DNA of 64,000 nt from Escherichia coli (GCF_013122565.1 NZ_CP053258.1); one strand, 5' to 3'. Counted from the stretch's first letter, positions 4,979 to 43,947 are shown. Notes: generated from the sequence alone by a model not told the origin. Numbers and translations: made by a program.

Positions 4979-5151
4979 TGGTCATTTCTTATTCGTACTG
5001 AGAACTGTCCATTTACTCTGGCTTTCCTGGTTAAGGCAATGGTTTCCAAGCGATACGCATTATTGCAATGGTGACAGAACATTGCGGTAACACGCTTTTA
5101 CCGCTACCTTAACCACACTCCATCGGTCACCTGAGGCGGAGCTTCGCCCCT

Positions 5152-11551: not shown

Positions 11552-11862
11552 TCGTGTTTATGACCTGTTAAAACTTCGCGAAGTGATAGGGCAGTATAAA
11601 GGGTACAGTGTGAAATTCCAGACTCTTACCTGATTGATGATTCTCTATTCTCCCGTGATATTTAACATCCTGTATGGGGGGAAATAGATGTACAAGCGCC
11701 ATTTTGCTGTACAAATAACCTACGAAAAGCCCAACGAAATAAATTGCAAATAAACGAAGATTGCTGGAAATTATGCTGATGTTAATTATTTGTGAAATAG
11801 TTAACAAGCGTTATAGTTTTTCTGTGGTAGCACAGAATAATGAAAAGTGTGTAAAGAAGGGT

Positions 11863-11956
11863 AAAAAAAAACCGGATGCGAGGCATCCGGTTGAAATAGG
11901 GGTAAACAGACATTCAGAAATGAATGACGGTAATAAATAAAGTTAATGATGATAGC
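11863..11956 (-). ncRNA. micF: MicF antisense sRNA
   Basis: reverse complement of 11863-11956 reads gctatcatcattaactttatttattaccgtcattcatttctgaatgtctgtttacccctatttcaaccggatgcctcgcatccggtttttttt; divergent from ompC; intrinsic terminator hairpin plus U-run. Confidence 0.95.
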
Positions 11957-12104
11957 GGGAGTTATTCTAGTTGCGAGTGAAGGTTTTGTTTTGACATTCA
12001 GTGCTGTCAAATACTTAAGAATAAGTTATTGATTTTAACCTTGAATTATTATTGCTTGATGTTAGGTGCTTATTTCGCCATTCCACAATAATCTTAAAAA
12101 GTTC

Positions 12105-12180
12105 CCTTGAATTTACATTTTGAAACATCTATAGCGATAAATGAAACATCTTAAAAGTTTTAGTATCATATTCGTGTTGG
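12105..12180 (+). promoter_or_regulatory. ompC upstream OmpR-binding region (repeated tttacattttgaaacatcta / atgaaacatct motifs)
   Basis: repeated TGAAACATCT-like motifs upstream of ompC; classic OmpR C1-C3 arrangement recalled from literature. Confidence 0.7.
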
Positions 12181-12275
12181 ATTATTCTGCATTTTTGGGG
12201 AGAATGGACTTGCCGACTGATTAATGAGGGTTAATCAGTATGCAGTGGCATAAAAAAGCAAATAAAGGCATATAA

Positions 12276-13394
<1,119 letters not shown>

Positions 13395-20796: not shown

Positions 20797-21055
20797 TTTT
20801 TTGCTTTCCTTCTTCATTTATAGGTTTTCACCGATGATGTCGCTGAAGGTTAACATATTCATCAGATTTATTAATTTGCTTTATGAATAACTTAAAGAAT
20901 ATTCAGACAATTTTACCTGCTCTTTTAGTGTTAAATTCTGATGAGAGAACAAACCAGCAGAAATATCTCTGGTGAATTAATCGCTATATAAATATGTTTA
21001 TAACCATTAGAAATGTGAGCAAAAGCCCGTTTTTGCCACGCTTCCCGCCACTCTT

Positions 21056-21090
21056 TTGATCCTGCTACAGGTTTTACCCCGATCGGGGTA
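21056..21090 (+). promoter_or_regulatory. napF promoter: FNR-like half-site region (ttgatcctgctaca) and perfect NarP/NarL 7-2-7 palindrome taccccgatcggggta (21075-21090)
   Basis: 16-bp perfect palindrome read directly; centres ~20 bp apart, consistent with the described napF FNR(-64.5)/NarP(-44.5) arrangement. Confidence 0.75.
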
Positions 21091-21203
21091 TGCACCTTTG
21101 ACACAACCTTTTATATCTTAGCGGCCATAAAAATAGCTTATTAGTTGTGTGGTTTATTTGCTCGCTCTCAATTTTCAGAGCGCGTTAATGATGGAAGGTC
21201 AAT

Positions 21204-21698
21204 GTGAAGATTGATGCATCCCGTCGGGGCATACTCACTGGTCGCTGGCGCAAAGCCAGTAACGGTATCCGTCCGCCCTGGTCCGGTGATGAATCTCATT
21301 TTCTGACCCATTGCACCCGCTGCGACGCCTGTATTAATGCTTGTGAAAACAACATTCTGCAACGCGGCGCGGGTGGCTATCCGAGCGTTAATTTCAAAAA
21401 TAACGAGTGCAGCTTCTGTTACGCCTGCGCGCAGGCTTGCCCCGAATCGCTATTTTCTCCGCGCCACACCAGGGCCTGGGATTTGCAGTTCACCATTGGG
21501 GACGCGTGCCTGGCGTATCAGTCAGTTGAATGCCGCCGCTGTCAGGATAGCTGTGAGCCAATGGCAATTATCTTTCGCCCGACGCTCTCCGGGATCTACC
21601 AGCCGCAACTTAATAGCCAACTTTGCAACGGATGTGGAGCATGTGCAGCCAGCTGTCCGGTATCAGCCATAACTGCGGAGTATCTCCATGCACACTAA
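21204..21698 (+). CDS. napF: ferredoxin-type protein NapF, 164 aa
   Basis: multiple CxxCxxCxxxCP clusters; first gene of nap operon. Confidence 0.95.
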   Translation: MKIDASRRGILTGRWRKASNGIRPPWSGDESHFLTHCTRCDACINACENNILQRGAGGYPSVNFKNNECSFCYACAQACPESLFSPRHTRAWDLQFTIGDACLAYQSVECRRCQDSCEPMAIIFRPTLSGIYQPQLNSQLCNGCGACAASCPVSAITAEYLHAH

Positions 21699-21951
21699 CT
21701 GGCAAGTTTGCAGCCTGGTCGTGCAGGCCAAAAGCGAACGAATTTCAGACATCAGCACCCAACTGAACGCCTTTCCCGGCTGTGAAGTTGCTGTCAGCGA
21801 CGCGCCAAGCGGTCAGTTGATTGTGGTGGTGGAAGCAGAAGACAGCGAAACGCTGATCCAAACCATTGAGTCAGTACGCAACGTAGAGGGCGTGCTGGCG
21901 GTGTCGCTGGTTTATCACCAGCAGGAAGAGCAAGGTGAGGAAACACCATGA
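21688..21951 (+). CDS. napD: NapA chaperone NapD, 87 aa
   Basis: 87-aa ORF overlapping napF and napA. Confidence 0.93.
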
Positions 21952-24434
21952 AACTCAGTCGTCGTAGCTTTATGAAAGCTAACGCCGTTGCGGCCGCTGC
22001 GGCGGCTGCCGGTCTCAGCGTGCCGGGCGTTGCCCGTGCCGTTGTTGGTCAGCAGGAAGCCATTAAATGGGATAAAGCGCCGTGCCGTTTCTGCGGTACT
22101 GGTTGCGGCGTTCTGGTCGGAACGCAGCAGGGGCGTGTGGTGGCCTGTCAGGGCGACCCGGATGCACCGGTTAACCGTGGCCTGAACTGCATTAAGGGCT
22201 ATTTCCTGCCCAAAATCATGTACGGTAAAGACCGTTTGACGCAGCCGCTGCTGCGTATGAAAAACGGTAAATATGACAAAGAGGGCGAATTTACCCCAAT
22301 CACCTGGGATCAAGCCTTCGATGTGATGGAAGAGAAATTCAAAACCGCCCTGAAAGAAAAAGGGCCGGAATCGATCGGTATGTTCGGTTCTGGTCAGTGG
22401 ACTATCTGGGAAGGTTATGCCGCGTCCAAGCTGTTCAAAGCGGGCTTCCGTTCGAACAACATCGACCCGAACGCGCGTCACTGTATGGCGTCGGCAGTAG
22501 TTGGCTTTATGCGTACCTTTGGTATGGATGAGCCGATGGGCTGCTATGACGACATCGAGCAGGCTGACGCGTTTGTGCTGTGGGGCGCAAACATGGCGGA
22601 GATGCACCCGATCCTCTGGTCGCGCATCACTAACCGTCGTCTTTCTAACCAGAACGTCACCGTGGCGGTGCTTTCTACCTACCAGCATCGTAGCTTCGAA
22701 CTGGCGGATAACGGCATCATCTTTACGCCACAGTCTGACCTGGTGATCCTGAACTACATCGCTAACTATATCATTCAAAACAATGCGATAAATCAGGACT
22801 TCTTCAGCAAACACGTTAACCTGCGTAAAGGTGCGACGGACATCGGCTACGGTTTACGTCCGACCCATCCGCTGGAAAAAGCAGCGAAGAATCCGGGTTC
22901 TGACGCCTCCGAACCGATGAGCTTTGAAGATTACAAAGCCTTCGTTGCTGAGTATACGCTGGAAAAAACCGCTGAAATGACCGGCGTGCCGAAAGACCAG
23001 TTAGAACAACTGGCGCAGCTGTACGCCGATCCGAACAAGAAAGTCATCTCCTACTGGACGATGGGCTTCAACCAGCACACGCGCGGCGTGTGGGCCAACA
23101 ACCTGGTCTACAACCTGCACCTGCTGACCGGCAAAATTTCCCAGCCGGGTTGCGGTCCGTTCTCCCTGACCGGGCAGCCTTCCGCGTGTGGTACTGCGCG
23201 TGAAGTGGGCACTTTTGCTCACCGTCTGCCTGCGGATATGGTGGTTACCAACGAAAAACACCGTGATATTTGCGAGAAGAAGTGGAATATCCCGAGCGGC
23301 ACCATTCCGGCGAAAATCGGTCTGCACGCGGTGGCACAAGACCGTGCGCTGAAAGACGGCAAACTGAATGTTTACTGGACCATGTGTACCAATAACATGC
23401 AGGCCGGACCGAACATTAATGAAGAGCGTATGCCGGGCTGGCGCGATCCGCGCAACTTTATCATCGTTTCCGATCCGTATCCGACAGTCAGTGCGCTGGC
23501 CGCCGACTTGATCCTGCCGACCGCAATGTGGGTAGAAAAAGAGGGTGCTTACGGTAACGCCGAACGCCGTACTCAGTTCTGGCGTCAGCAGGTACAGGCA
23601 CCGGGCGAAGCGAAATCGGATCTCTGGCAGTTAGTCCAGTTCTCCCGCCGCTTCAAAACCGAAGAAGTATGGCCGGAAGAGCTGCTGGCTAAGAAACCGG
23701 AACTGCGTGGCAAAACGCTGTACGAAGTTCTGTATGCCACCCCCGAAGTGAGCAAATTCCCGGTATCCGAACTGGCGGAAGATCAGCTGAACGATGAATC
23801 CCGCGAGCTGGGCTTCTATCTGCAAAAAGGGCTATTCGAAGAGTACGCATGGTTTGGTCGCGGTCACGGTCACGATCTGGCACCGTTCGATGACTACCAC
23901 AAAGCGCGCGGTCTGCGCTGGCCGGTGGTGAACGGTAAAGAAACGCAGTGGCGTTACAGCGAAGGTAACGACCCGTACGTGAAAGCGGGTGAAGGCTACA
24001 AGTTCTACGGTAAACCGGATGGCAAAGCGGTGATTTTCGCGCTGCCGTTCGAACCGGCGGCGGAAGCACCGGATGAAGAGTACGATCTGTGGCTCTCTAC
24101 CGGACGCGTTCTGGAGCACTGGCACACCGGCAGTATGACTCGCCGTGTGCCGGAACTGCACCGCGCCTTCCCGGAAGCGGTCCTGTTTATTCACCCGCTG
24201 GATGCGAAAGCGCGCGATCTACGCCGTGGCGACAAAGTGAAAGTGGTTTCTCGCCGTGGTGAAGTGATCTCGATTGTCGAAACGCGCGGTCGTAACCGTC
24301 CGCCGCAGGGCCTGGTGTACATGCCGTTCTTCGACGCCGCACAGCTGGTTAACAAACTGACGCTGGATGCGACCGATCCGCTCTCGAAAGAGACGGATTT
24401 CAAGAAGTGCGCGGTCAAACTGGAGAAGGTGTAA
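21948..24434 (+). CDS. napA: periplasmic nitrate reductase catalytic subunit NapA, 828 aa
   Basis: Tat signal SRRSFMK, N-terminal 4Fe-4S Cys motif CRFCGTGCG, molybdopterin oxidoreductase length. Confidence 0.97.
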
Positions 24435-24440
24435 GCCATT

Positions 24441-25136
24441 ATGTCCCGGTCAGCGAAACCTCAAAATGGTCGCCGCCGCTTTCTGCGCGATGTTGTTCGC
24501 ACAGCAGGCGGGCTGGCTGCCGTGGGTGTGGCGCTGGGGTTACAACAGCAAACCGCACGCGCATCTGGCGTGCGGTTGCGCCCGCCCGGAGCCATAAACG
24601 AGAACGCCTTTGCCAGTGCCTGTGTGCGTTGCGGTCAGTGTGTTCAGGCTTGCCCTTACGACACCTTAAAACTGGCGACGCTGGCTTCTGGCCTGTCGGC
24701 GGGCACGCCATATTTTGTCGCACGGGATATTCCTTGCGAAATGTGTGAGGACATTCCGTGCGCCAAAGTGTGCCCGAGCGGTGCGCTGGATCGTGAGATT
24801 GAATCGATCGACGACGCGCGGATGGGGCTGGCGGTACTGGTGGACCAGGAAAACTGTCTCAACTTTCAGGGGCTGCGCTGCGATGTTTGTTATCGCGAAT
24901 GCCCGAAAATTGATGAGGCCATCACCCTGGAGCTGGAGCGCAACACGCGTACCGGTAAGCACGCCCGCTTTCTGCCGACGGTTCACAGCGACGCCTGTAC
25001 TGGTTGCGGTAAGTGCGAAAAAGTGTGCGTGCTGGAACAACCGGCAATCAAGGTGTTACCGCTGTCACTGGCGAAAGGGGAGTTAGGTCACCATTACCGC
25101 TTCGGCTGGCTGGAGGGGAACAATGGCAAATCGTAA
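24441..25136 (+). CDS. napG: ferredoxin-type protein NapG, 231 aa
   Basis: Tat-like signal (RRRFLRD), four Cys clusters. Confidence 0.95.
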
Positions 25137-25986
25137 ACGTGACGCCGGGCGCGAGGCGCTGGAGAAAAAAGGCTGGTGGCGCAGTCACCGTTGGCTGGTG
25201 TTACGTCGCCTTTGTCAGTTCTTCGTGCTGGGGATGTTTTTGAGCGGTCCGTGGTTTGGTGTGTGGATCTTGCACGGCAACTACAGCAGTAGCCTGTTAT
25301 TCGACACCGTTCCGCTGACCGATCCGCTGATGACGCTGCAAAGTCTTGCCAGTGGTCATCTGCCTGCCACGGTGGCGTTGACCGGTGCGGTGATTATCAC
25401 CGTGCTCTACGCCCTGGCAGGAAAGCGATTATTTTGCAGCTGGGTCTGCCCGCTGAACCCGATTACCGACTTAGCGAACTGGTTACGCAGGCGCTTTGAC
25501 CTCAATCAGTCTGCGACGATCCCTCGCCACATTCGCTACGTGCTGTTGGTGGTCATTCTGGTGGGATCAGCCTTAACTGGCACGCTCATCTGGGAATGGA
25601 TCAACCCCGTTTCCCTGATGGGGCGTAGCCTGGTAATGGGCTTCGGCAGCGGCGCGCTGCTTATTCTCGCGCTGTTTTTATTTGATCTACTGGTCGTTGA
25701 ACACGGCTGGTGCGGGCACATTTGTCCGGTTGGCGCGCTGTATGGCGTGCTGGGTAGCAAAGGTGTGATTACCGTTGCGGCCACCGATCGGCAGAAATGT
25801 AACCGCTGTATGGATTGTTTTCATGTTTGCCCGGAACCGCATGTGCTACGTGCCCCGGTGCTGGATGAACAAAGCCCGGTGCAGGTCACCAGCCGCGATT
25901 GCATGACGTGCGGTCGCTGCGTGGATGTCTGTTCTGAGGATGTATTTACAATAACTACACGATGGAGTTCGGGAGCGAAATCATGA
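25123..25986 (+). CDS. napH: membrane ferredoxin-type protein NapH, 287 aa
   Basis: TM segments plus C-terminal Cys clusters. Confidence 0.95.
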
Positions 25987-26432
25987 AAAGCCATGACCTG
26001 AAGAAAGCGCTGTGTCAATGGACGGCGATGCTGGCCCTGGTGGTAAGCGGCGCGGTTTGGGCGGCTAATGGCGTCGATTTTAGCCAGTCGCCGGAAGTAT
26101 CCGGGACGCAGGAAGGGGCCATTCGGATGCCAAAAGAGCAGGAACGGATGCCGCTGAACTATGTGAATCAGCCGCCAATGATCCCGCATAGCGTTGAAGG
26201 TTATCAGGTAACGACCAATACCAACCGCTGCTTACAGTGCCACGGTGTCGAAAGTTATCGCACCACTGGTGCGCCGCGTATCAGTCCTACTCACTTTATG
26301 GACAGCGACGGCAAAGTGGGCGCAGAAGTGGCTCCGCGTCGTTATTTCTGTCTGCAATGTCACGTACCGCAGGCCGATACCGCGCCAATCGTGGGGAATA
26401 CCTTTACCCCATCAAAAGGTTACGGGAAATAA
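25983..26432 (+). CDS. napB: diheme cytochrome c NapB, 149 aa
   Basis: signal peptide, two CxxCH (CLQCH x2); start set at MKSHDLKK inside the track ORF. Confidence 0.93.
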   Translation: MKSHDLKKALCQWTAMLALVVSGAVWAANGVDFSQSPEVSGTQEGAIRMPKEQERMPLNYVNQPPMIPHSVEGYQVTTNTNRCLQCHGVESYRTTGAPRISPTHFMDSDGKVGAEVAPRRYFCLQCHVPQADTAPIVGNTFTPSKGYGK

Positions 26433-26441
26433 GAGGTTATT

Positions 26442-27044
26442 ATGGGAAATTCTGACCGTAAGCCTGGTCTGATTAAGCGCCTGTGGAAATGGTGGCGTAC
26501 CCCCAGCCGTCTGGCGCTGGGGACGCTGCTGTTGATCGGCTTTGTTGGCGGCATCGTCTTCTGGGGCGGCTTTAACACCGGGATGGAAAAAGCCAATACC
26601 GAAGAGTTCTGCATTAGCTGCCACGAAATGCGTAACACGGTGTATCAGGAATACATGGATTCCGTGCACTACAACAACCGTAGCGGCGTTCGTGCGACCT
26701 GTCCGGATTGTCACGTTCCGCACGAGTTTGTGCCGAAAATGATACGCAAGCTCAAAGCAAGTAAAGAGCTGTATGGTAAAATTTTTGGCGTTATTGACAC
26801 GCCGCAGAAATTCGAAGCTCATCGCCTGACTATGGCACAGAATGAGTGGCGGCGAATGAAGGACAACAACTCGCAGGAGTGCCGTAACTGTCACAACTTC
26901 GAGTTTATGGATTTAACCGCCCAGAAAGGTGTTGCCGCGAAGATGCATGACCAGGCGGTGAAAGATGGGCAAACCTGTATTGATTGCCATAAAGGGATAG
27001 CGCACAAGCTGCCCGATATGCGTGAAGTCGAGCCAGGTTTTTAA
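26442..27044 (+). CDS. napC: membrane-anchored tetraheme cytochrome c quinol dehydrogenase NapC, 200 aa
   Basis: N-terminal TM helix, four CxxCH (CISCH, CPDCH, CRNCH, CIDCH). Confidence 0.96.
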   Translation: MGNSDRKPGLIKRLWKWWRTPSRLALGTLLLIGFVGGIVFWGGFNTGMEKANTEEFCISCHEMRNTVYQEYMDSVHYNNRSGVRATCPDCHVPHEFVPKMIRKLKASKELYGKIFGVIDTPQKFEAHRLTMAQNEWRRMKDNNSQECRNCHNFEFMDLTAQKGVAAKMHDQAVKDGQTCIDCHKGIAHKLPDMREVEPGF

Positions 27045-27056
27045 CAGGGTTATTGC

Positions 27057-27680
27057 GTGGGTATGCTTGAAGCCAGAGAGTTACTTTGTGAGCGGGATGA
27101 ACGAACCTTATTTAGTGGCTTGTCATTTACGCTGAACGCAGGAGAGTGGGTACAAATCACCGGTAGCAACGGCGCGGGGAAGACAACGCTTCTCCGTTTG
27201 CTGACGGGGTTGTCTCGCCCTGACGCAGGCGAGGTTCTCTGGCAAGGGCAGCCCTTGCATCAGGTACGCGACAGCTACCATCAAAACCTGTTATGGATAG
27301 GCCATCAGCCGGGGATCAAAACCCGGCTGACGGCGTTAGAAAATCTGCACTTTTATCATCGCGATGGCGATACCGCACAATGTCTGGACGCCCTGGCGCA
27401 GGCCGGGCTTGCCGGATTCGAAGATATTCCTGTAAATCAACTTTCTGCCGGACAACAACGCCGCGTCGCTTTAGCGCGTTTGTGGCTGACCCGTGCCACG
27501 TTATGGATCCTCGACGAGCCTTTTACCGCGATTGACGTTAACGGCGTCGATCGTCTGACCCAGCGTATGGCGCAGCATACGGAGCAGGGGGGAATTGTGA
27601 TTCTGACTACCCACCAGCCGCTCAACGTTGCTGAAAATAAAATTCGCCGCATTTCACTGACGCAAACGAGGGCCGCATGA
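27057..27680 (+). CDS. ccmA: heme exporter ATP-binding protein CcmA
   Basis: Walker [13 protein letters not shown] signature LSAGQQRR; first gene of ccm operon after napC. Confidence 0.94.
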
Positions 27681-28339
27681 TGTTCTGGCGCATTTTCCGT
27701 CTTGAGCTGCGCGTAGCGTTTCGCCATAGCGCCGAAATCGCCAACCCGCTGTGGTTCTTCCTGATTGTAATTACCCTTTTTCCGCTCAGTATCGGTCCGG
27801 AGCCGCAATTGCTGTCGCGTATTGCACCGGGCATTATCTGGGTTGCTGCGCTGCTTTCATCCTTGCTGGCGCTGGAACGACTGTTCCGTGACGATTTGCA
27901 GGACGGCAGTCTTGAACAATTGATGTTGTTGCCGTTACCCTTGCCCGCCGTTGTGCTGGCGAAGGTGATGGCGCACTGGATGGTAACCGGTCTGCCGTTA
28001 CTCATCCTTTCGCCACTGGTAGCAATGCTACTGGGAATGGATGTTTATGGCTGGCAAGTGATGGCGCTGACGCTGCTGCTGGGAACGCCTACGCTTGGCT
28101 TTCTCGGTGCACCGGGTGTGGCGTTGACAGTGGGACTTAAGCGCGGTGGTGTGCTGCTCAGCATACTGGTGTTACCGCTGACTATCCCATTACTCATCTT
28201 TGCCACCGCCGCGATGGACGCGGCTTCCATGCATTTGCCCGTTGACGGGTATCTGGCAATTTTAGGCGCGTTGCTGGCAGGCACCGCGACATTAAGTCCT
28301 TTTGCGACGGCGGCAGCGTTACGAATCAGCATTCAATAA
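27677..28339 (+). CDS. ccmB: heme exporter membrane protein CcmB, 220 aa
   Basis: 220-aa polytopic membrane ORF, overlaps ccmA stop. Confidence 0.94.
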
Positions 28340-28380
28340 CGCTGGATTACTGATTTTTGTTCGAGTCTGGTATCGAAACT

Positions 28381-29118
28381 ATGTGGAAAACACTGCATCA
28401 ACTGGCGATCCCACCACGACTGTATCAAATCTGTGGCTGGTTTATACCGTGGCTGGCAATTGCCAGTGTGGTCGTGCTTACCGTCGGCTGGATCTGGGGA
28501 TTCGGCTTTGCTCCGGCTGATTATCAGCAGGGAAATAGCTACCGCATTATCTACCTGCATGTGCCTGCGGCGATCTGGTCGATGGGCATTTATGCATCAA
28601 TGGCGGTGGCGGCGTTTATTGGCCTTGTCTGGCAGATGAAAATGGCCAACCTGGCGGTGGCGGCGATGGCCCCCATTGGTGCCGTGTTTACTTTTATTGC
28701 CCTGGTTACCGGCTCTGCATGGGGAAAACCGATGTGGGGCACCTGGTGGGTATGGGATGCACGTCTGACTTCTGAACTGGTGCTGCTGTTTCTGTATGTT
28801 GGTGTAATTGCCCTGTGGCACGCCTTCGACGACCGCCGTCTGGCGGGCCGTGCGGCAGGTATCCTGGTGCTGATTGGCGTGGTGAATCTGCCGATTATTC
28901 ATTACTCCGTGGAGTGGTGGAACACCCTGCATCAGGGATCAACGCGGATGCAGCAAAGTATCGATCCGGCGATGCGTTCGCCGCTGCGCTGGTCGATTTT
29001 TGGCTTCCTGCTGCTGTCTGCCACGCTGACGCTGATGCGGATGCGTAATTTGATTTTGCTGATGGAAAAACGCCGTCCGTGGGTGAGTGAACTGATACTG
29101 AAAAGAGGCCGTAAATGA
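28381..29118 (+). CDS. ccmC: heme exporter/heme lyase component CcmC, 245 aa
   Basis: MWKTLHQLAIPPRLYQ, WGxxWxWD tryptophan-rich motif (WGTWWVWDARL). Confidence 0.94.
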   Translation: MWKTLHQLAIPPRLYQICGWFIPWLAIASVVVLTVGWIWGFGFAPADYQQGNSYRIIYLHVPAAIWSMGIYASMAVAAFIGLVWQMKMANLAVAAMAPIGAVFTFIALVTGSAWGKPMWGTWWVWDARLTSELVLLFLYVGVIALWHAFDDRRLAGRAAGILVLIGVVNLPIIHYSVEWWNTLHQGSTRMQQSIDPAMRSPLRWSIFGFLLLSATLTLMRMRNLILLMEKRRPWVSELILKRGRK

Positions 29119-29324
29119 CCCCTGCATTTGCTTCCTGGAATGAATTTTTCGCAATGGGCGGTTACGCCTTTTTTGTCTGGCTGGCGGTGGTGATGACCGT
29201 TATTCCGCTGGTGGTTTTGGTCGTGCACTCGGTGATGCAACATCGCGCAATTCTGCGTGGCGTGGCGCAACAGTGGGCGCGTGAGGCGCGTTTACGTGCT
29301 GCGCAACAGCAGGAGGCTGCATGA
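29115..29324 (+). CDS. ccmD: CcmD, 69 aa
   Basis: 69-aa single-TM ORF coupled between ccmC and ccmE. Confidence 0.92.
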
Positions 29325-29800
29325 ATATTCGCCGTAAAAACCGCTTGTGGATTGCCTGTGCTGTGTTGGCAGGGCTGGCGCTGACTATCGGTCTGGTGCT
29401 GTATGCGCTGCGCTCGAATATCGATCTCTTTTATACGCCGGGGGAGATTCTCTACGGCAAGCGTGAAACTCAGCAGATGCCGGAAGTCGGTCAGCGTCTG
29501 CGCGTTGGCGGGATGGTGATGCCGGGTAGCGTGCAGCGCGATCCCAATTCGCTGAAAGTAACGTTCACCATTTACGATGCTGAAGGCTCAGTGGATGTCT
29601 CTTACGAAGGCATTTTGCCGGATCTGTTCCGTGAAGGGCAGGGCGTTGTGGTGCAGGGCGAGCTGGAAAAAGGCAATCATATCCTCGCGAAAGAAGTGCT
29701 GGCGAAACATGATGAAAACTACACGCCGCCAGAAGTTGAGAAAGCGATGGAAGCTAACCACCGTCGCCCGGCGAGTGTTTATAAGGACCCAGCATCATGA
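29321..29800 (+). CDS. ccmE: heme chaperone CcmE, 159 aa
   Basis: 159-aa ORF, N-terminal anchor. Confidence 0.94.
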
Positions 29801-31740
29801 TGCCGGAAATTGGTAACGGACTGCTGTGCCTGGCGCTGGGAATTGCGCTGCTGCTGTCCGTGTATCCGCTATGGGGCGTGGCGCGCGGAGATGCGCGCAT
29901 GATGGCGTCTTCCCGCTTGTTTGCCTGGCTGCTGTTTATGTCTGTAGCTGGCGCATTTCTGGTGCTGGTCAATGCTTTCGTGGTCAACGACTTTACCGTC
30001 ACCTATGTTGCCAGCAACTCCAATACCCAGCTTCCGGTGTGGTATCGCGTGGCGGCTACCTGGGGCGCGCATGAAGGCTCGCTACTGCTGTGGGTGCTGC
30101 TGATGAGCGGCTGGACCTTTGCGGTGGCGATTTTTAGTCAGCGTATTCCGCTGGATATTGTGGCCCGTGTACTGGCGATAATGGGGATGGTCAGCGTCGG
30201 CTTTTTGCTGTTCATTCTCTTTACCTCTAACCCGTTTTCACGCACGTTGCCGAACTTCCCGATTGAAGGGCGCGATCTTAACCCGCTGTTACAGGATCCG
30301 GGGCTGATCTTCCATCCGCCTCTGCTCTATATGGGGTACGTGGGTTTCTCGGTGGCGTTTGCTTTTGCCATTGCTTCTTTGCTGAGCGGGCGTCTGGACA
30401 GCACTTATGCGCGTTTTACTCGTCCGTGGACGCTGGCGGCGTGGATTTTCCTGACGCTCGGCATTGTGCTCGGTTCCGCATGGGCCTATTACGAACTCGG
30501 CTGGGGTGGCTGGTGGTTCTGGGATCCGGTAGAAAACGCCTCGTTTATGCCGTGGTTGGTGGGTACTGCGCTGATGCACTCACTGGCGGTCACTGAACAA
30601 CGCGCCAGCTTCAAAGCGTGGACATTACTGCTGGCAATCAGTGCCTTTTCGCTGTGTCTGTTGGGGACTTTCCTGGTGCGTTCCGGCGTGCTGGTATCGG
30701 TACACGCGTTTGCGTCTGATCCGGCGCGCGGTATGTTTATCCTCGCCTTTATGGTGCTGGTGATTGGCGGTTCGCTGCTGCTGTTTGCCGCGCGTGGACA
30801 CAAAGTTCGCTCACGCGTAAACAATGCGCTGTGGTCGCGGGAATCTTTGCTGTTAGCGAACAACGTTTTGCTGGTCGCCGCAATGCTGGTGGTGTTGCTG
30901 GGGACGCTGCTGCCGCTGGTGCACAAGCAACTGGGACTGGGCAGTATTTCGATTGGCGAACCGTTCTTCAACACCATGTTTACCTGGCTGATGGTGCCGT
31001 TTGCTCTACTGCTGGGTGTCGGTCCTCTGGTGCGCTGGGGGCGCGATCGCCCACGTAAAATCCGCAATTTATTGATTATCGCCTTCATCTCAACGCTGGT
31101 GCTGTCGCTGCTGCTGCCGTGGCTGTTCGAAAGCAAAGTTGTGGCGATGACGGTGCTCGGCCTGGCAATGGCCTGCTGGATTGCGGTGCTGGCAATTGCG
31201 GAAGCTGCGCTGCGTATTTCACGTGGCACGAAAACCACCTTCAGTTATTGGGGAATGGTGGCGGCTCACCTGGGGCTGGCAGTGACAATTGTTGGTATTG
31301 CCTTTAGCCAGAACTATAGCGTTGAGCGTGATGTGCGCATGAAGTCCGGCGATAGTGTCGATATTCATGAATATCGCTTCACCTTCCGTGATGTCAAAGA
31401 GGTGACTGGCCCGAACTGGCGTGGCGGTGTGGCGACTATCGGCGTAACGCGAGAGGGTAAACCAGAAACGGTGCTGTATGCGGAAAAACGTTATTACAAC
31501 ACTGCCGGGTCGATGATGACCGAAGCGGCGATTGACGGCGGCATCACGCGTGACCTGTACGCGGCCCTCGGTGAAGAGCTGGAAAACGGCGCGTGGGCCG
31601 TGCGTCTTTACTACAAACCGTTTGTTCGCTGGATTTGGGCGGGCGGGCTGATGATGGCGTTGGGCGGACTGCTGTGTCTGTTTGATCCTCGCTATCGTAA
31701 GCGCGTGAGCCCGCAAAAAACTGCGCCGGAGGCTGTATGA
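29797..31740 (+). CDS. ccmF: cytochrome c heme lyase subunit CcmF, 647 aa
   Basis: 647-aa polytopic ORF with W-rich motif ([12 protein letters not shown]). Confidence 0.95.
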
Positions 31741-32294
31741 AGCGCAAAGTATTGTTAATTCCGTTGATTATCTTCCTGGCGATTGCCGCGGCGCTGCTGT
31801 GGCAGCTGGCGCGTAATGCCGAAGGGGATGATCCGACCAATCTGGAATCGGCGCTCATTGGCAAGCCTGTGCCGAAGTTTCGTCTCGAATCACTGGACAA
31901 TCCAGGGCAGTTTTATCAGGCGGATGTGCTGACTCAGGGCAAACCAGTGCTGCTTAACGTCTGGGCGACCTGGTGTCCGACCTGCCGTGCGGAACATCAA
32001 TATCTGAATCAGCTTTCAGCGCAGGGCATTCGCGTGGTCGGCATGAACTATAAAGACGATCGCCAGAAGGCAATCAGCTGGCTGAAAGAGCTGGGCAATC
32101 CTTACGCGCTAAGCCTGTTTGATGGCGACGGCATGTTAGGGCTGGATCTCGGTGTCTATGGCGCGCCAGAAACGTTCCTTATTGACGGCAACGGCATCAT
32201 TCGCTATCGCCATGCGGGCGATCTCAATCCTCGCGTCTGGGAAGAAGAGATCAAGCCGCTGTGGGAGAAATACAGTAAGGAGGCCGCACAATGA
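31737..32294 (+). CDS. ccmG: thiol:disulfide interchange protein CcmG/DsbE, 185 aa
   Basis: thioredoxin motif WCPTC. Confidence 0.95.
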   Translation: MKRKVLLIPLIIFLAIAAALLWQLARNAEGDDPTNLESALIGKPVPKFRLESLDNPGQFYQADVLTQGKPVLLNVWATWCPTCRAEHQYLNQLSAQGIRVVGMNYKDDRQKAISWLKELGNPYALSLFDGDGMLGLDLGVYGAPETFLIDGNGIIRYRHAGDLNPRVWEEEIKPLWEKYSKEAAQ

Positions 32295-33343
32295 GGTTTT
32301 TATTGGGCGTGCTGATGCTGATGATCTCCGGCTCAGCGCTGGCGACCATCGACGTGTTGCAGTTTAAAGATGAAGCACAGGAACAACAGTTCCGTCAGCT
32401 CACTGAAGAACTGCGCTGCCCGAAATGCCAGAACAACAGCATTGCCGATTCCAACTCGATGATTGCCACCGACCTGCGCCAGAAAGTGTATGAACTGATG
32501 CAGGAAGGTAAAAGTAAAAAAGAGATTGTCGATTATATGGTGGCGCGTTACGGCAACTTCGTCACTTACGATCCGCCGTTAACGCCGCTGACCGTATTGC
32601 TGTGGGTGCTGCCAGTAGTGGCTATTGGCATTGGCGGTTGGGTCATATACGCCCGCTCGCGGCGTCGGGTACGCGTGGTGCCGGAAGCGTTTCCTGAACA
32701 AAGCGTGCTGGAAGGTAAGCGTGCCGGATATGTTGTTTATCTGCCGGGTATTGTGGTGGCGTTAATTGTGGCTGGCGTCAGCTACTACCAGACTGGCAAT
32801 TATCAGCAGGTGAAAATCTGGCAGCAGGCCACGGCACAGGCTCCGGCGTTGCTGGACAGGGCGCTGGATCCGAAAGCTGATCCGCTCAACGAAGAAGAGA
32901 TGTCGCGCCTTGCGCTGGGGATGCGTACTCAACTGCAAAAAAATCCGGGAGATATAGACGGCTGGATTATGTTGGGCCGCGTTGGCATGGCGCTGGGTAA
33001 CGCCAGTATTGCCACCGATGCATACGCTACTGCATATCGCCTCGATCCGAAGAACAGTGATGCTGCACTGGGTTACGCTGAAGCGTTGACACGTTCATCT
33101 GATCCCAACGACAACCGCCTGGGGGGTGAACTACTACGCCAGTTGGTGAGAACGGACCATAGCAATATCCGTGTGTTAAGCATGTATGCGTTTAATGCCT
33201 TTGAGCAGCAGCGATTTGGCGAAGCCGTTGCCGCGTGGGAGATGATGTTGAAACTCTTACCTGCCAACGATACTCGCCGTGCTGTGATTGAACGTAGTAT
33301 CGCGCAGGCGATGCAACATTTGTCGCCGCAGGAGAGTAAATAA
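32291..33343 (+). CDS. ccmH: cytochrome c heme lyase subunit CcmH, 350 aa
   Basis: N-terminal LRCPKC motif, C-terminal TPR-like region. Confidence 0.94.
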   Translation: MRFLLGVLMLMISGSALATIDVLQFKDEAQEQQFRQLTEELRCPKCQNNSIADSNSMIATDLRQKVYELMQEGKSKKEIVDYMVARYGNFVTYDPPLTPLTVLLWVLPVVAIGIGGWVIYARSRRRVRVVPEAFPEQSVLEGKRAGYVVYLPGIVVALIVAGVSYYQTGNYQQVKIWQQATAQAPALLDRALDPKADPLNEEEMSRLALGMRTQLQKNPGDIDGWIMLGRVGMALGNASIATDAYATAYRLDPKNSDAALGYAEALTRSSDPNDNRLGGELLRQLVRTDHSNIRVLSMYAFNAFEQQRFGEAVAAWEMMLKLLPANDTRRAVIERSIAQAMQHLSPQESK

Positions 33344-33380
33344 AAAGTGGCCCGATGGTGATTCCATCGGGCTATTTTTA
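33344..33380. terminator. bidirectional intrinsic terminator between ccmH and narP (gcccgatgg...ccatcgggc flanked by A-run/T-run)
   Basis: hairpin with flanking aaaaa / ttttt. Confidence 0.8.
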
Positions 33381-34025
33381 TTGTGCCCCGCGTTGTTGCA
33401 GGAACAGAATGGTGGCCGCCACGCGTGAGCGGACATTGAGTTTACGCAGCAGATTGCGAATATGTACTTTTACTGTCTGCTCGGAAATATTCAACACCGA
33501 GGCAATTTGTTTATTTGACAGCCCCTGTGCCAGCTCGTGCAGAACATCCAGCTCGCGCTCCGTCAGCACGCTGAAGGGATCTTCTTCCGCGCCAAACATT
33601 TCACGTTCACGCAAGTACTGATTGACGCGTTCGCTAAAGACTTTGCTGCCTTTCGCTCCGGCACGAATCGCTTCCAGCAACACTTCCGGGTCGCTGTCTT
33701 TCAACAGATAACCGTCTGCGCCTGCGTCTATCAGCGCAAAGACATCGCTGGAGGCATCTGATACGGTCAGGATAATAATTTGCGCGGTAACGCCATCCCT
33801 GCGCAAGGCATTGAGGGTATCCAGGCCACTCATACCTTTCATATTGAGATCCAGCAAGATCACGTCGATATCCAGTCTATTCGCCAGATCGATAGCACTC
33901 GCGCCGTCGCCTGCTTCGGCGACCACTTCAAAGCCAGGATCAAGCTCCAGTAACTGACGAACACCGCGTCGCATAAGTGGATGATCATCCACAATCATCA
34001 CCTGAAAAGGCGTTGCTTCAGGCAT
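33378..34025 (-). CDS. narP: nitrate/nitrite response regulator NarP, 215 aa
   Basis: MPEATPFQVMIVDDHPLMRRG receiver domain, LuxR HTH C-terminus; start trimmed from track ORF. Confidence 0.95.
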   Translation of the reverse strand: MPEATPFQVMIVDDHPLMRRGVRQLLELDPGFEVVAEAGDGASAIDLANRLDIDVILLDLNMKGMSGLDTLNALRRDGVTAQIIILTVSDASSDVFALIDAGADGYLLKDSDPEVLLEAIRAGAKGSKVFSERVNQYLREREMFGAEEDPFSVLTERELDVLHELAQGLSNKQIASVLNISEQTVKVHIRNLLRKLNVRSRVAATILFLQQRGAQ

Positions 34026-34344
34026 AGTAGTCTCCTGAGGTTTTATTAGAATCATTATGTTTGAGCGTAGCGTTGGTAACGCTACCAGGCGCGTGAATGT
34101 TACCCCATTTTATGTATGGACATGTAGTGAAAACTACAACCTTGTCGTTCGCTTCGGCATCATTTTCATTATAAAGACGGAATTTTGCATCAGCTTCTCA
34201 TCAAGAAAAACACCTAAAAAATCAATCACAATACTTGTGCATTTCTTTAAACAGTTTTTAAAAACTGACTCCGGGTATGGAGCTATGGGTATTTTCCGTA
34301 CCCAATGCTTTTAACAGCAATTAATTTCATAGGATGAAAGCTCA

Positions 34345-37037: not shown

Positions 37038-37114
37038 TGGTCGGCACGAGAGGATTTGAACCTCCGACCCCCGACACCCCATGACGGTGCGCTACCAGGC
37101 TGCGCTACGTGCCG
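37038..37114 (-). tRNA. proL: tRNA-Pro (GGG anticodon), 77 nt including CCA
   Basis: reverse complement reads CGGCACGTAGCGCAGCCTGGTAGCGCACCGTCATGGGGTGTCGGGGGTCGGAGGTTCAAATCCTCTCGTGCCGACCA. Confidence 0.93.
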
Positions 37115-39377: not shown

Positions 39378-40385
39378 ATGAGTCTGGATATCAACCAGAT
39401 TGCTCTGCACCAGCTTATCAAGCGTGATGAGCAGAACCTTGAGCTGGTGTTGCGCGATTCATTGCTGGAACCGACAGAAACCGTCGTTGAGATGGTGGCA
39501 GAACTGCATCGGGTCTATAGCGCCAAAAATAAAGCTTACGGCTTGTTTAGCGAAGAGAGTGAACTGGCGCAGACGCTGCGCTTACAGCGTCAGGGCGAAG
39601 AGGACTTTCTGGCATTTAGCCGCGCGGCAACCGGTCGCCTGCGTGACGAATTAGCGAAATATCCTTTTGCTGACGGTGGATTCGTGCTGTTTTGCCACTA
39701 CCGTTATCTGGCGGTGGAGTATCTGCTGGTGGCAGTCCTGAGCAACCTGAGCAGTATGCGCGTTAACGAAAATCTCGACATCAACCCAACCCATTATCTT
39801 GATATCAATCATGCGGATATTGTTGCGCGTATCGATTTAACCGAATGGGAAACCAATCCAGAGTCGACCCGCTATCTCACTTTCCTGAAAGGGCGAGTAG
39901 GGCGCAAAGTGGCGGATTTCTTTATGGATTTCCTCGGGGCCAGCGAAGGGTTAAACGCGAAAGCGCAAAACCGTGGGCTGTTGCAAGCGGTTGATGATTT
40001 CACTGCCGAAGCACAACTGGATAAAGCAGAGCGACAGAACGTGCGCCAGCAGGTTTATAGCTACTGTAATGAGCAGCTGCAGGCAGGCGAAGAGATTGAA
40101 CTGGAGTCGCTGTCGAAAGAGCTGGCAGGCGTCAGCGAAGTGAGCTTCACGGAGTTTGCGGCTGAAAAAGGCTACGAACTGGAAGAGAGCTTCCCGGCAG
40201 ACCGTAGCACACTGCGTCAGTTGACGAAGTTTGCCGGTAGCGGCGGTGGCTTGACTATTAACTTTGATGCGATGCTGTTAGGTGAACGCATCTTCTGGGA
40301 TCCGGCGACCGATACCCTGACCATTAAAGGCACGCCGCCGAATTTGCGCGACCAATTGCAGCGCCGGACGTCTGGTGGGAACTAA
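39378..40385 (+). CDS. yejK: nucleoid-associated protein YejK (NdpA), 335 aa
   Basis: 335-aa [22 protein letters not shown]. Confidence 0.94.
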
Positions 40386-40765
40386 ATCTCCAACGCGAAT
40401 GTTTCTTTTCGGAGAAACAGTTGCGGGATAATCACAATTCTTGTCAATCAGTTAGTGAGATGACTTGCTGATTGACCTTTCATTCGAAAATGTTTTCTCT
40501 GTTATTATACTTAGTGTTACTGAAAATATTATTCTCTTATCCCCTTTATTCGATAATAAATCGGTCTGGTCACTATTTCCGCCGTTTTTTGTGAGCTGTA
40601 ACACTGGAAAAATCATTCTGTTTAATTATATTGAGTTTACTTGGCGTTATATGTTGTTATTTGCTTTGACTATATAAAATGCAAATGTATTCTTAATGTC
40701 AATATTATTGTCGTTATGTTTGACTCATTATATTAATCGTATGAATAGTTTTAAGGATTCACCGC

Positions 40766-41338
40766 ATGGAGCAAGAAAATCCTGAAGATAGAAAGTGTTG
40801 TCGACCGAAAAAAACGTTCTCTTTAACCAGAAAATTACTGGTATGTTTTATCTTTACCCTCATTGTATTCAGTGGTTGTTTATTTGTCGTTATGAACACG
40901 GTCATTCATAACACCAGCACTGACAGCTTTTGCCTGGGTTGTCATGAAATGAAAGACAACATCCTTACCGAGAGTTTCAAAAAATCCATTCATGGCAGTA
41001 ATCGTACTGGCGTGAAAGTCGCTTGTGCCGATTGCCATATTCCTGATGAATTTGTCCCTAAGATGATCAGAAAAGCCCACGCCGTTAAAGAGGTTTGGGG
41101 GCATATGACAGGCGTAATTGATACGGCCGATAAATTCGATGCACATCGTGGCGAAATGGCAAAAGCGGAATGGGCAAGAATGAAAGCAAACAATTCGCAG
41201 GAATGCAGAGACTGCCACGATATTTCTAAATTACAGAAAAAATTTATGGCGCCGTTCCATGAGGCTTCTCTTAAAGAAGGGAAAACATGCATTGATTGTC
41301 ATGCCGGCATTGCACATAAATTACCAGCAGTTCATTAG
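40766..41338 (+). CDS. NapC/NirT/CymA-family membrane-anchored tetraheme cytochrome c (putative quinol dehydrogenase), 190 aa; NapC paralog
   Basis: N-terminal TM helix (LLVCFIFTLIVFSGCLFVV), four CxxCH (CLGCH, CADCH, CRDCH, CIDCH); shares blocks VPKMIRK, NNSQECR-CH, TCIDCH-GIAHKLP with the napC in this window. Confidence 0.85.
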   Translation: MEQENPEDRKCCRPKKTFSLTRKLLVCFIFTLIVFSGCLFVVMNTVIHNTSTDSFCLGCHEMKDNILTESFKKSIHGSNRTGVKVACADCHIPDEFVPKMIRKAHAVKEVWGHMTGVIDTADKFDAHRGEMAKAEWARMKANNSQECRDCHDISKLQKKFMAPFHEASLKEGKTCIDCHAGIAHKLPAVH

Positions 41339-41431
41339 TCATTAATACATGAATGTCATGTCTGTCTGGTTTCAAATAAAAACAAGAAGGGTTTCATGTT
41401 GATTTAAGTTTTTATGTAAAAGGACCATGTT

Positions 41432-43072
41432 ATGAGGAAACTAAAAAGGGGATTCTTATTGGCTGGGGTATTAACGGCACTTTCTCTAAGCGCTTATGCT
41501 GACAGAAATATGAATAAGATCCCGCATATCAATCTGTCGAATCCATCCGTCGAACCAGTTAGTGAGAGAATAATCCAAACAGATATTGTTGTTATTGGCG
41601 GTGGGCTTTCTGGCATGTCCGCAGGGTTGACTGCAGTACAGGGCGGAGCCAAAGTTGTTATTTTTGAAAAACTACCAAGCCTTGGAGGGGCAGGCGTTTA
41701 TCCTGAAGGCAGTTTAGGCATTGGCACCCTTATGCAAAAAAAAGAGGGGAAAGGTGCCACGCTGAATCAAGCCTTTGGTAAGGCGATCGATTTCCATCAC
41801 TGGCGAGCCAATGCTAGTGCATTGCACGCATTAATGAAAAACTCAGGCGAAACCATTGATTGGGTTGCCAGTAATGGCGTTGAGTTTACGACCTTAAAAA
41901 CCACCATTTATCCTCAGTCAGATTCATTATGGACCTGGCATATGTATAAGCATAATGGTGCATCTGTTACTAAAAGCTTTTACAAGAAGATCCTTGATGG
42001 AGGTGGGCAAATCTACACCGAAACTCCTGTTAAGAAGATTCTTCGCGACAAACAAAGCGGTGATGTCGTTGGCGTCGAAGCGGTTAATAGCGTAACAGGG
42101 GAAAAAATCATTGCCTATGGTAAGGGTGTGATTGTGGCGACCGGTGGTTTTGCCAACAACCGTGACATGATTGAAAAATACATCACCGATGTGAATCAGA
42201 AAAACATGGTGCCGGTCAAACTACGTGGCCCCCTGATTGATGGACGCGAAGGCGATGGTATCAAAATGGGGCAAGACATTGGCGCTGATACTGCCGGGAT
42301 GCAAACCATTGCTGGCAATAGCCCATATGTCGATCAAGACCCTCCTATCCGTCAGTTTAATGGCGCGGATTACCAAAAACAGGCCAGAACGTCATTAAGC
42401 CAGCCATTCCTGTGGATTAACCGACAAGGCGAGCGTTTCTTTGATGAGTCACTCGGTTCCAGTTTTACCCTCGTTTATAACGCTATCACCATGAATGGCG
42501 GAGTCATGTATTCTGTCTGGGATGATGCAATGCGCCAGAAGATGGTTAACGAAGGGCCGGTTACACCGTTTAACGCCATCGTGTTGCCTGGGCAGCCGAT
42601 GAAGGCGCTGGATCAGGCGATCGAAATCGGCATGAAAGAAGGGTGGTTATTTAAAGGTGAAACGTTGGACGATCTGGCAAAACAGATCAATGTTCCTGCA
42701 GACAATCTGAAAGCGACGATTGCGAAAGTAAACAAGTATACGGATGAAGGTTTCGATCCTGACTGGGGGCGCAAGAAAGAGCATCTGTTTAAATTTCAGG
42801 ATAAAGGACCGTATTACGCCGTGAAAGGTATTCGGGCTTATTTCCTGACGCTGGGTGGTTTGAAAATGAACAGCGATCTGCAGGTCTACGATACCAATGA
42901 GAAGATTATCCCAGGTCTGTATGTTGTCGGGCAGGATATGGGCGGTCTGTATGACAGCTCCTATGATTTGGTACTTGAAGGATCGGCTTCTGGCTTTGCG
43001 TTGACGTCGGGACGTATGGCAGCGAAACATATTATAAGCACCAGAGTGCAGGCACAGGGAGGAGGCAAATGA
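41432..43072 (+). CDS. exported FAD-dependent flavoprotein of the fumarate-reductase/succinate-dehydrogenase flavoprotein (FAD_binding_2) type, 546 aa; substrate unknown
   Basis: N-terminal signal peptide MRKLKRGFLLAGVLTALSLSAYA; dinucleotide fold DIVVIGGGLSGMSAGLTA...EKLPSLGGAG; C-terminal GLYVVGQDMGG; no CxxCH. Confidence 0.8.
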   Translation: MRKLKRGFLLAGVLTALSLSAYADRNMNKIPHINLSNPSVEPVSERIIQTDIVVIGGGLSGMSAGLTAVQGGAKVVIFEKLPSLGGAGVYPEGSLGIGTLMQKKEGKGATLNQAFGKAIDFHHWRANASALHALMKNSGETIDWVASNGVEFTTLKTTIYPQSDSLWTWHMYKHNGASVTKSFYKKILDGGGQIYTETPVKKILRDKQSGDVVGVEAVNSVTGEKIIAYGKGVIVATGGFANNRDMIEKYITDVNQKNMVPVKLRGPLIDGREGDGIKMGQDIGADTAGMQTIAGNSPYVDQDPPIRQFNGADYQKQARTSLSQPFLWINRQGERFFDESLGSSFTLVYNAITMNGGVMYSVWDDAMRQKMVNEGPVTPFNAIVLPGQPMKALDQAIEIGMKEGWLFKGETLDDLAKQINVPADNLKATIAKVNKYTDEGFDPDWGRKKEHLFKFQDKGPYYAVKGIRAYFLTLGGLKMNSDLQVYDTNEKIIPGLYVVGQDMGGLYDSSYDLVLEGSASGFALTSGRMAAKHIISTRVQAQGGGK

Positions 43073-43479
43073 GTAAGCTATTGAAGAACATTGTCACAAT
43101 CATTCTTGCTGGCGTAATGTGCACCGTTATCGGTATGGTTTCTGCCAGTGCACAAGAGATTGTCGGCATGAAAATGCACAAGACCATTGGTCTGGAATGT
43201 AATAACTGCCATGTTGATGATGTTAAAGCCAACAAGAATATGACGCCAACGTGCGTTAGCTGCCATGCGCCTGGTGAGCGTTATTATCATGGTAAGAAGG
43301 ATTCAGAAGGTAACTCAGTGTTAAAAGAGTATCCGGAGTCGGGTAAAACACGAGTTGCGTCTTTCCATGACTCTCATGGCGGGGAAATTCGCTGTACGGT
43401 ATGCCATACGTCACATGAGAAGGAACCACAGCCACTCTATTGCAACAACTGCCATCAGTTTGATGTGAAGATTAAGTAG
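43069..43479 (+). CDS. small periplasmic tetraheme cytochrome c, 136 aa
   Basis: signal peptide, four CxxCH (CNNCH, CVSCH, CTVCH, CNNCH) in ~110 mature residues; ATGA overlap with upstream flavoprotein gene. Confidence 0.85.
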   Translation: MSKLLKNIVTIILAGVMCTVIGMVSASAQEIVGMKMHKTIGLECNNCHVDDVKANKNMTPTCVSCHAPGERYYHGKKDSEGNSVLKEYPESGKTRVASFHDSHGGEIRCTVCHTSHEKEPQPLYCNNCHQFDVKIK

Positions 43480-43501
43480 TGAAGGTATTTGTCAGTCGCT
43501 G

Positions 43502-43540
43502 AAAAAGAAAACGGCCCGTAAAGGCCGTTTTCTTTTGTTC
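43502..43540. terminator. intrinsic terminator (aaacggcccgtaaaggccgttt + T-run) between the island operon and convergent rplY
   Basis: GC hairpin flanked by gaaaaagaaa and ttcttttg. Confidence 0.85.
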
Positions 43541-43554
43541 AACTTATTCAGCAA

Positions 43555-43947
<393 letters not shown>

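Follow-up and report, generated by a model that had tools for sequence, protein, structure and literature searches.

A conserved CRP-type site and a predicted promoter in the AT-rich leader of a probably introgressed reductase operon in Escherichia coli

Results

A putative reductase operon lies between yejK and rplY

The window is the whole 64-kb stretch of Escherichia coli DNA that we analysed. At the locus of interest, the gene order is yejM and yejL (both minus strand), yejK (39378–40385, plus strand), a leader, an operon of three genes, a terminator and then rplY and radD/yejH (both minus strand). The leader extends from 40386 to 40765. Together, leader and operon form a 3.17-kb insert that replaces the yejK–rplY spacer of E. 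coli K-12. Features of the locus are listed in Table 1.

The first gene of the operon encodes a protein of the membrane-anchored quinol dehydrogenase type. By tblastn, this is 47% identical to the true NapC encoded at 26442–27044. The second product, an exported flavoprotein, does not reach any curated cut-off; the vinyl phenol reductase VprA gives the best NCBIfam match (312 bits versus 600), with the flavocytochrome c family next. The nearest solved structure is that of a Shewanella urocanate reductase (6t85, E = 8e-36), followed by flavocytochrome c fumarate reductases. Because the operon encodes c-type cytochromes, it needs the Ccm system. In E. coli, expression of the Ccm system goes with that of the nap-ccm operon, which FNR and NarP control. 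The true nap operon, ccmA-H and narP (21204–34055) are found 6–19 kb upstream of the insert, napC being about 13.7 kb upstream.

The insert carries its own terminator (repeat I4 of our repeat search), which is predicted to fold at −22 kcal/mol on the plus strand (z = −5.4) and at −26 kcal/mol on the minus strand (z = −6.8). The K-12 rplY terminator and REP-like palindrome (L001, 1700–1810) are absent.

In several unclassified Escherichia assemblies (L013, L015, L018, L019 and L022), two or three ORFs take the place of an intact flavoprotein gene. Flavoprotein fragments of 79–312 amino acids are annotated in some E. albertii. Over part of its range, the operon is undergoing decay.

Table 1. Features of the yejK–rplY interval, with positions in the window
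Feature	Position	Strand	Comment
Left junction	40365–40385	+	Last codons of yejK; encoded amino acids unchanged
Hairpin 1, part of yejK 3′ end	40389–40428	+	Contains the 40400–40419 stem-loop; no U-tract after
Hairpin 2, inverted repeat GTCAATCAG...CTGATTGAC with CTTTCATTC tail	40443–40485	+	Candidate weak intrinsic terminator of yejK
70-codon ORF, no gene	40465–40677	+	No family match; frameshifts or stops in relatives
Poorly conserved AT-rich upstream region	40481–40585		~29% G+C
CRP-type site TGTGAGCTGTAACACT	40590–40605	+	Centre 40597.5; conservation and 8/10 core match
Predicted promoter P1, −10 TATATT	40627–40632	+	Promoter scan; weak −35 TGGAAA at 40605–40610
Predicted 5′ UTR, ~126 nt	40640–40765	+	Shine–Dalgarno AAGGA at 40753–40757, 8 nt before ATG
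NapC/NirT-family tetrahaem cytochrome	40766–41338	+	TIGR02161, 207 bits (cut-off 310.6); four CxxCH
Exported FAD flavoprotein	41432–43072	+	Flavocytochrome c/fumarate reductase/urocanate reductase superfamily
Small tetrahaem cytochrome c3	43069–43479	+	Pfam Cytochrom_c3_2; four CxxCH motifs
Bidirectional terminator, operon and rplY	43503–43536	both	Perfect 14-bp inverted repeat

The leader is the most AT-rich gap in the window

An earlier, sequence-only reading of this DNA had described the leader as AT-rich, and this was confirmed. The G+C content is 31.8%, compared with 51.3% for the 64-kb window. Positions 40481–40765 have 29.1% G+C and yejK has 52.8%. Among all 380-bp sliding windows in the 64 kb, the lowest (30.3% G+C) starts inside the leader at 40471, and only 0.35% are as low in G+C as the leader. 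The wider interval 40386–43545, which the sequence-only reading had proposed to compare with the window average, also falls below it (43.1% versus 51.3%).

Non-coding gaps were defined by approximating genes as long non-overlapping ORFs. The leader has the lowest G+C of the 21 approximate gaps of at least 100 bp; the next gaps have 34.1, 34.5 and 36.3%. Since these other gaps reach 34–36%, the leader is the extreme of the normal intergenic tail and no separate class. In every host, the leader has about 30% G+C, also where its sequence is not conserved. On both strands together, it contains 7 promoter-like hexamer pairs, versus 1.9 expected. AT-rich regulatory DNA typically shows both a G+C of this kind and such an excess of promoter-like matches.

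The second most extended AT-rich gap of the window (11552–12290, 34.5% G+C) is flanked by an RcsD-like gene (890 aa, minus strand) and an OmpC-like porin gene (plus strand). Because of these flanking genes, the gap is presumably the ompC/micF control region. It contains a CRP-like match with 1 mismatch, TGTGAAATAGTTAACA, at 11791–11806.

The preference of H-NS for AT-rich acquired DNA is well established (PMC2094087; PMC2686267). AT-richness far above the window average, on acquired DNA, is an expected feature of H-NS-silenced xenogeneic DNA and is found here. Like known H-NS-silenced regions (Lang et al. 2007, PMC2094087; Banos et al. 2009, PMC2686267), the leader has a G+C content about 20 points below that of the genome, consists of lineage-acquired DNA and carries many promoter-like sequences on both strands. 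Unlike them, it has no match to the published high-affinity H-NS motif TCGATAAATT at up to 2 mismatches (1.4 expected), and its composition falls within the ordinary intergenic tail of the window. Judged by its 29–32% G+C, the leader is a plausible H-NS target. The most plausible place for binding of H-NS, or of another nucleoid protein, would be 40481–40585.

The leader encodes no conserved protein or known RNA family

As the sequence-only reading had noted, the leader contains a 70-codon ORF, which begins with TTG. This ORF is frameshifted or stopped in 8 of 8 related leaders and has no NCBIfam match. Since it is broken in every relative, we conclude that it is not coding. A 54-codon ORF on the opposite strand is likewise interrupted. 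Coding potential was rejected for both ORFs, which are interrupted in relatives and match no family.

We also searched for RNA families, using both a 6-kb region and the leader alone (E up to 10). No Rfam family was found in the leader; its best matches scored 20 bits, versus a gathering score of 45, and 17 bits, versus 79. The only real match in the 6-kb region is a known element outside 40386–40765. This is the L25-Gammaproteobacteria leader upstream of rplY (43861–43886, minus strand), which scored 46.9 bits and above the gathering score.

Two conserved hairpins follow yejK

The stem-loop tgtttcttttcggagaaaca, reported in the sequence-only reading, is present at 40400–40419, and the AT-rich run quoted there is likewise correctly placed. 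The stem-loop forms part of hairpin 1, which has a folding energy of −16.3 kcal/mol (z = −3.6 versus shuffles). Hairpin 2 is stronger. Its paired portion, 40443–40476, folds at −17.7 kcal/mol (z = −4.7) and equates to repeat I9 of the repeat search. It was picked up as terminator-like by a consensus scan; it has just 3 G-C pairs, and its tail contains 5 T. A strong U-tract is absent from both hairpins.

We then compared nine aligned leaders. Pairing is kept in 96.5% of cells for the two hairpins. For hairpin 1, 94% of cells are paired across 9 related leaders, with one compensatory change only. The arms of hairpin 2 are invariant among lineages, and its loop varies from 14 to 18 nt. Because there is almost no covariation, the pattern does not demonstrate a function at the RNA level. 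Hairpin 2, with its T-rich tail, is the likelier of the two to act as a weak terminator of yejK.

The word GTCAA/TTGAC occurs 5 times in the leader (40443, 40472, 40666, 40698 and 40720), versus 0.86 expected (uncorrected p = 0.001). This enrichment has no significance after correction for about 500 words, and only 3 copies are conserved. At 40443, GTCAATCA is kept even in Citrobacter, there without its inverted partner.

The best-conserved block contains a CRP-type site

We compared the leader with those of related strains in two alignments: the nine leaders and, separately, five divergent lineages that include Citrobacter. The top conserved 22-nt block is 40589–40610, TTGTGAGCTGTAACACTGGAAA. 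Here, 17 of 22 columns are invariant in the five lineages, compared with a background of 31% (p of about 0.004 by a rough Bonferroni-corrected binomial). The block holds a CRP-type core, TGTGA-N6-aCACt. Compared with the consensus TGTGA-N6-TCACA, TGTGAGCTGTAACACT matches at 8 of 10 core positions; the 2 mismatches give a right half-site of aCACt rather than TCACA. By number alone, such a match is not rare. The 64 kb contain 19 CRP-like matches with 2 mismatches, versus 25.6 expected, or about 0.15 per 380 bp. Hence, the case for CRP rests on conservation and geometry.

The promoter scan predicts P1 as TGGAAA-16-TATATT, with transcription starting near 40639. The −10 hexamer is conserved, in the form TTATATT in Escherichia and TTATACT in Citrobacter. 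The distance from the centre of the CRP-type site to the −10 hexamer is 29.5 bp, and this is the same in Escherichia and Citrobacter (L011). At the corresponding position in Citrobacter sp. Cu233 is TGTGATTTGCAACACG, then 21 nt, then TATACT; the leader of this strain is otherwise unalignable by BLAST. A site at −41.5 is the geometry of class II CRP-dependent promoters. The arrangement of site and −10 hexamer fits such a promoter, given the predicted start. The element looks like a CRP activator site and not an FNR site.

Conservation in other parts of the leader is lower. In Escherichia sp. MOD1-EC7003, 25 bp of the region 40481–40585 are deleted. Several relatives have a broken flavoprotein gene, so part of the leader's conservation may stem from short divergence times in Escherichia. 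In the 880-bp leader of a metagenomic operon (L006, 72% identical), we found no counterpart of the site with the correct spacing to a −10 hexamer.

The predicted 5′ UTR has no stable or conserved structure (z = 0.06; weak alifold energy). The Shine–Dalgarno sequence AGGAUU (40754–40759) can pair with AAUCCU in codons 5–6 of the NapC-like gene (40778–40783). Citrobacter has a shifted equivalent, AGAGU/ACUCU. This pairing may be a weak translation-initiation hairpin, or chance.

FNR, NarL/NarP and ArcA sites

FNR and other anaerobic regulators had been proposed to target the leader. Our scans do not support this. The only match to the FNR consensus TTGAT-N4-ATCAA with up to 3 mismatches is at 40438–40451, which lacks a TTGA core and is about 195 bp upstream of the predicted start. 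In total, FNR consensus matches in the leader number 2, versus 8.9 expected in shuffles. No TTGAT-N4-ATCAA site was found near −41.5 or −61.5 of the predicted start. The conserved CRP-type box differs from the FNR consensus at 4 of 10 positions and has G (GTGA), not T, at the discriminating position. There are no exact TACYYMT heptamers for NarL/NarP in the leader; 7-2-7 arrangements appear only at 4 mismatches, which is chance level. The leader has no ArcA matches.

The napF control region served as a positive control, and there the scan does recover the known NarP 7-2-7 site TACCCCGATCGGGGTA at 21075–21090. The known napF FNR site TTGATCCTGCTACA (21056–21069), located 20 bp upstream of the NarP site, has 3 mismatches. 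Hence, weak FNR sites can escape such scans.

Consensus scans for IHF, Fur, TorR-like and ModE sites gave nothing above chance or conserved in the leader. A Fur-like match at 40427–40445 (14/19) is unconvincing in AT-rich DNA. Besides the CRP-type site, the only exceptions in the consensus scans were two degenerate Fis-like matches.

The insert bears a signature of introgression

The segment is not identical to K-12, in which the yejK–rplY spacer is only 138 bp. At megablast sensitivity, the insert is present in 0 of 5,426 complete E. coli genomes. The flanks of the insert in the window are 98–99% identical to E. coli, and NCBI lists the exact proteins under E. coli. The three genes occupy the same locus in a few draft E. 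coli-like assemblies, in Escherichia sp. MOD1-EC7003, E4694, E4930, E13S3, E10V10 and E2661, in the E. albertii type strain and in Citrobacter sp. Cu233.

The insert is 97–99% identical to those of the E4694/E4930/E10V10 group (loci L012–L022). For the same group, identity is 92–94% in yejK and 89–97% in the wider flanks. Such high identity of the insert to unclassified Escherichia with flanks of only 89–97% indicates introgression. In this lineage, the insert therefore does look like acquired DNA. The E. albertii copy is 83–88% identical to the insert, and the two leaders align at 74% identity. When E. albertii, MOD1-EC7003, the unclassified group and Citrobacter are compared with one another, divergence of the insert equals or exceeds that of yejK, which is consistent with long residence at the locus. 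We also considered a purely ancestral insert that E. coli has lost. Such a history agrees with the comparisons among E. albertii, MOD1-EC7003 and Citrobacter, where the divergence of the insert is at least that of the flanks. However, it does not fit the copy in the window, which resembles the E4694/E4930 group far more closely than its flanks do.

Junctions were mapped using three-way informative sites (window, K-12 and Escherichia sp. E4930). Sites are K-12-type at 97 of 115 positions in the left flank and at 67 of 84 in the right flank; donor-type sites are scattered (e.g. 40304, 40307 and 40317). The sequence is mainly K-12-type up to 40364, E4930-type at 40379 and 40382, and K-12-type again from 43550. 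The change of type is sharp at either end, on the left within about 15 nt. The right junction falls between the terminator and 43550. The sequence-only reading had placed the left edge of an island at 40386. An AT-rich non-coding leader does stand at the left of DNA absent from K-12, but the junction is in the last ~20 nt of yejK, between 40364 and 40379.

The repeat search found no direct or terminal inverted repeats bounding the insert. None of its 3 genes is mobility-related, and the nearest tRNA is at 37038–37114. A genomic island borne by a mobile element was rejected, since bounding repeats and mobility genes are missing and the junctions are like those of homologous replacement. Hence, the best reading of these comparisons is that the spacer was replaced, by homologous recombination, with a 3.17-kb segment whose source was a related Escherichia lineage other than E. 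coli. As part of the introgressed segment, the leader would have arrived with the operon.

Five loci with more distant homologues were excluded from the footprinting. Four of them (L007, L008, L023 and L024) have no NapC-like gene, which makes their upstream regions unsuitable for comparison. In L006, all three genes are present, but the 880-bp leader is unalignable.

Between the operon and rplY, Citrobacter sp. Cu233 has a gene for an SmdA-family ABC transporter (L011, 6170–7909). Hence, the locus has been remodelled more than once. In E4930-type assemblies, yejM is not called (L021, 1777–3891) or is split into 449 and 136 aa (L022, 1061–2820). This may reflect a frameshift; in E. coli, yejM is an essential gene.

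Discussion

We propose that the leader is both a non-coding junction and the control region of a three-gene periplasmic reductase operon. We give this composite model a little better than an even chance. In the model, the two conserved hairpins (40389–40485) would end the yejK transcript. The fast-evolving region that follows (40481–40585, ~29% G+C) is probably an upstream region or a binding region for nucleoid proteins. Positions 40590–40632 would form a class II activator-dependent promoter, at which cAMP-CRP contacts RNA polymerase from −41.5 and transcription starts near 40639. The transcript would then have an unstructured 5′ UTR of ~126 nt and a good Shine–Dalgarno sequence ahead of the ATG at 40766.

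The predicted dependence on CRP draws on a likeness to class II CRP promoters such as galP1 and melR. As in those, a 16-bp core of the type TGTGA-N6-xCACx lies 29.5 bp upstream of the −10 hexamer, and the −35 is poor. The 29.5-bp offset to the first base of the −10 hexamer is equivalent to −41.5 in class II CRP promoters. The core GTGAG...CACT is identical to that of the lac CRP site, TGTGAGTTAGCTCACT. The leader differs from class II CRP promoters in its right half-site, aCACt, and in what is downstream: respiratory-type cytochrome and flavoprotein genes instead of a sugar catabolic operon.

This genetic context might suggest a different activator. The leader could be an FNR-activated anaerobic promoter, possibly modulated by NarL/NarP or ArcA, in the manner of nap, nrf, dms and frd. 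The operon encodes c-type cytochromes and a fumarate-reductase-like flavoprotein and hence needs Ccm, and the nap-ccm operon is ~13 kb upstream. Furthermore, the leader resembles the napF promoter (20818–21203) in being long, AT-rich and upstream of a NapC-family cytochrome gene, and in that an activator site is expected at or near −41.5 or −64.5. The 3 mismatches of the napF site TTGATCCTGCTACA illustrate how weak a real FNR site can be. However, the sole FNR-like match of the leader is about 195 bp upstream of the predicted start and without the TTGA core, such matches are fewer than expected, and the conserved −41.5 site carries GTGA. Unlike napF, the leader has neither a TTGAT-N4-ATCAA-type site nor a NarL/NarP 7-2-7 site; a NarL heptamer and an ArcA match are also missing. 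We consider FNR control distinctly unlikely. The leader might instead be mainly a silencing region coated by H-NS, with spurious promoter-like sequences, an effectively silent operon and no specific regulatory design. A G+C content of 29–32% over ~300 bp in a 51% genome, the surplus of promoter-like matches, the known preference of H-NS (PMC2094087, PMC2686267), the persistence of low G+C in every host and the decayed flavoprotein gene of several relatives are all in keeping with this. Against it, other gaps in the window are nearly as AT-rich, one block with promoter geometry is far more conserved than the rest, and TCGATAAATT is unmatched. We regard silencing as the whole explanation as unlikely, if a little less so than FNR control. 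It is compatible with our preferred CRP-dependent model, because H-NS repression and CRP activation often coexist.

Two further explanations concern the transcript. The operon may have no promoter of its own and depend on read-through from yejK, with the hairpins as attenuators or processing sites. Indeed, yejK is immediately upstream on the same strand, and neither hairpin has a strong U-tract. However, the 380-bp AT-rich gap contains the conserved promoter-like block. In addition, the L006 operon must carry its own promoter, because it follows a divergently oriented gene and has an 880-bp leader. We think read-through very improbable. Finally, the leader could encode a small protein or a small or cis-regulatory RNA, to which the 70-codon and 54-codon ORFs and the two significant hairpins might point. 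This is largely refuted by the interruption of the ORFs in all relatives, the lack of any family or Rfam match and a 5′ UTR that folds like shuffles. We find it scarcely credible.

The enzyme predicted for the operon resembles Shewanella CymA paired with the periplasmic flavocytochrome c Fcc3 or the urocanate reductase UrdA. The shared parts are a NapC/NirT-type quinol dehydrogenase, a tetrahaem c3 module and an FAD reductase from one superfamily. In contrast to Shewanella Fcc3 and UrdA, the operon encodes its haem and FAD modules as individual proteins, and scores are under the curated cut-offs. The regulator of anaerobic respiration in Shewanella is CRP and not FNR, and the site upstream of the operon described here is likewise CRP-type. 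It is conceivable, but in our judgement improbable, that the operon described here follows the same logic: a respiratory-type operon wired to CRP instead of FNR, which moved between Escherichia lineages by homologous replacement as a cassette of promoter plus operon. If so, the GTCAATCAG...CTGATTGAC repeat and the CRP-type box would be the cassette's own terminator and regulatory signals. The enzyme would then serve to reduce, when carbon is limiting, some electron acceptor of the gut or the environment.

The leader is an ordinary AT-rich promoter region, and the insert itself has already been published for E. albertii. There, the yejH–yejK insert is the target of a species-specific nested PCR (Ooka et al. 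2015, PMC4700944). By comparison, the copy described here is in an E. coli background, and the leader was not analysed in that work. Our analysis offers a model of the promoter of this periplasmic reductase operon, which is uncharacterised although common in E. albertii and in Escherichia other than E. coli; roughly 250 genomes carry it. The apparent island would be an introgression from lineage to lineage at a conserved locus, with no insertion of a mobile element. Strains named as E. coli, and unclassified Escherichia too, contain relatives of the 'E. albertii-specific' PCR target, a point that bears on diagnostic specificity.

A 70%-identical flavoprotein and cytochrome c3 pair is found at 4979–6000 of L008, beside a divergent gene for a cNMP-binding regulator of the CRP/FNR family. 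The spacer at this locus contains two copies of the palindrome TATATCACA(A/T)GATATA.
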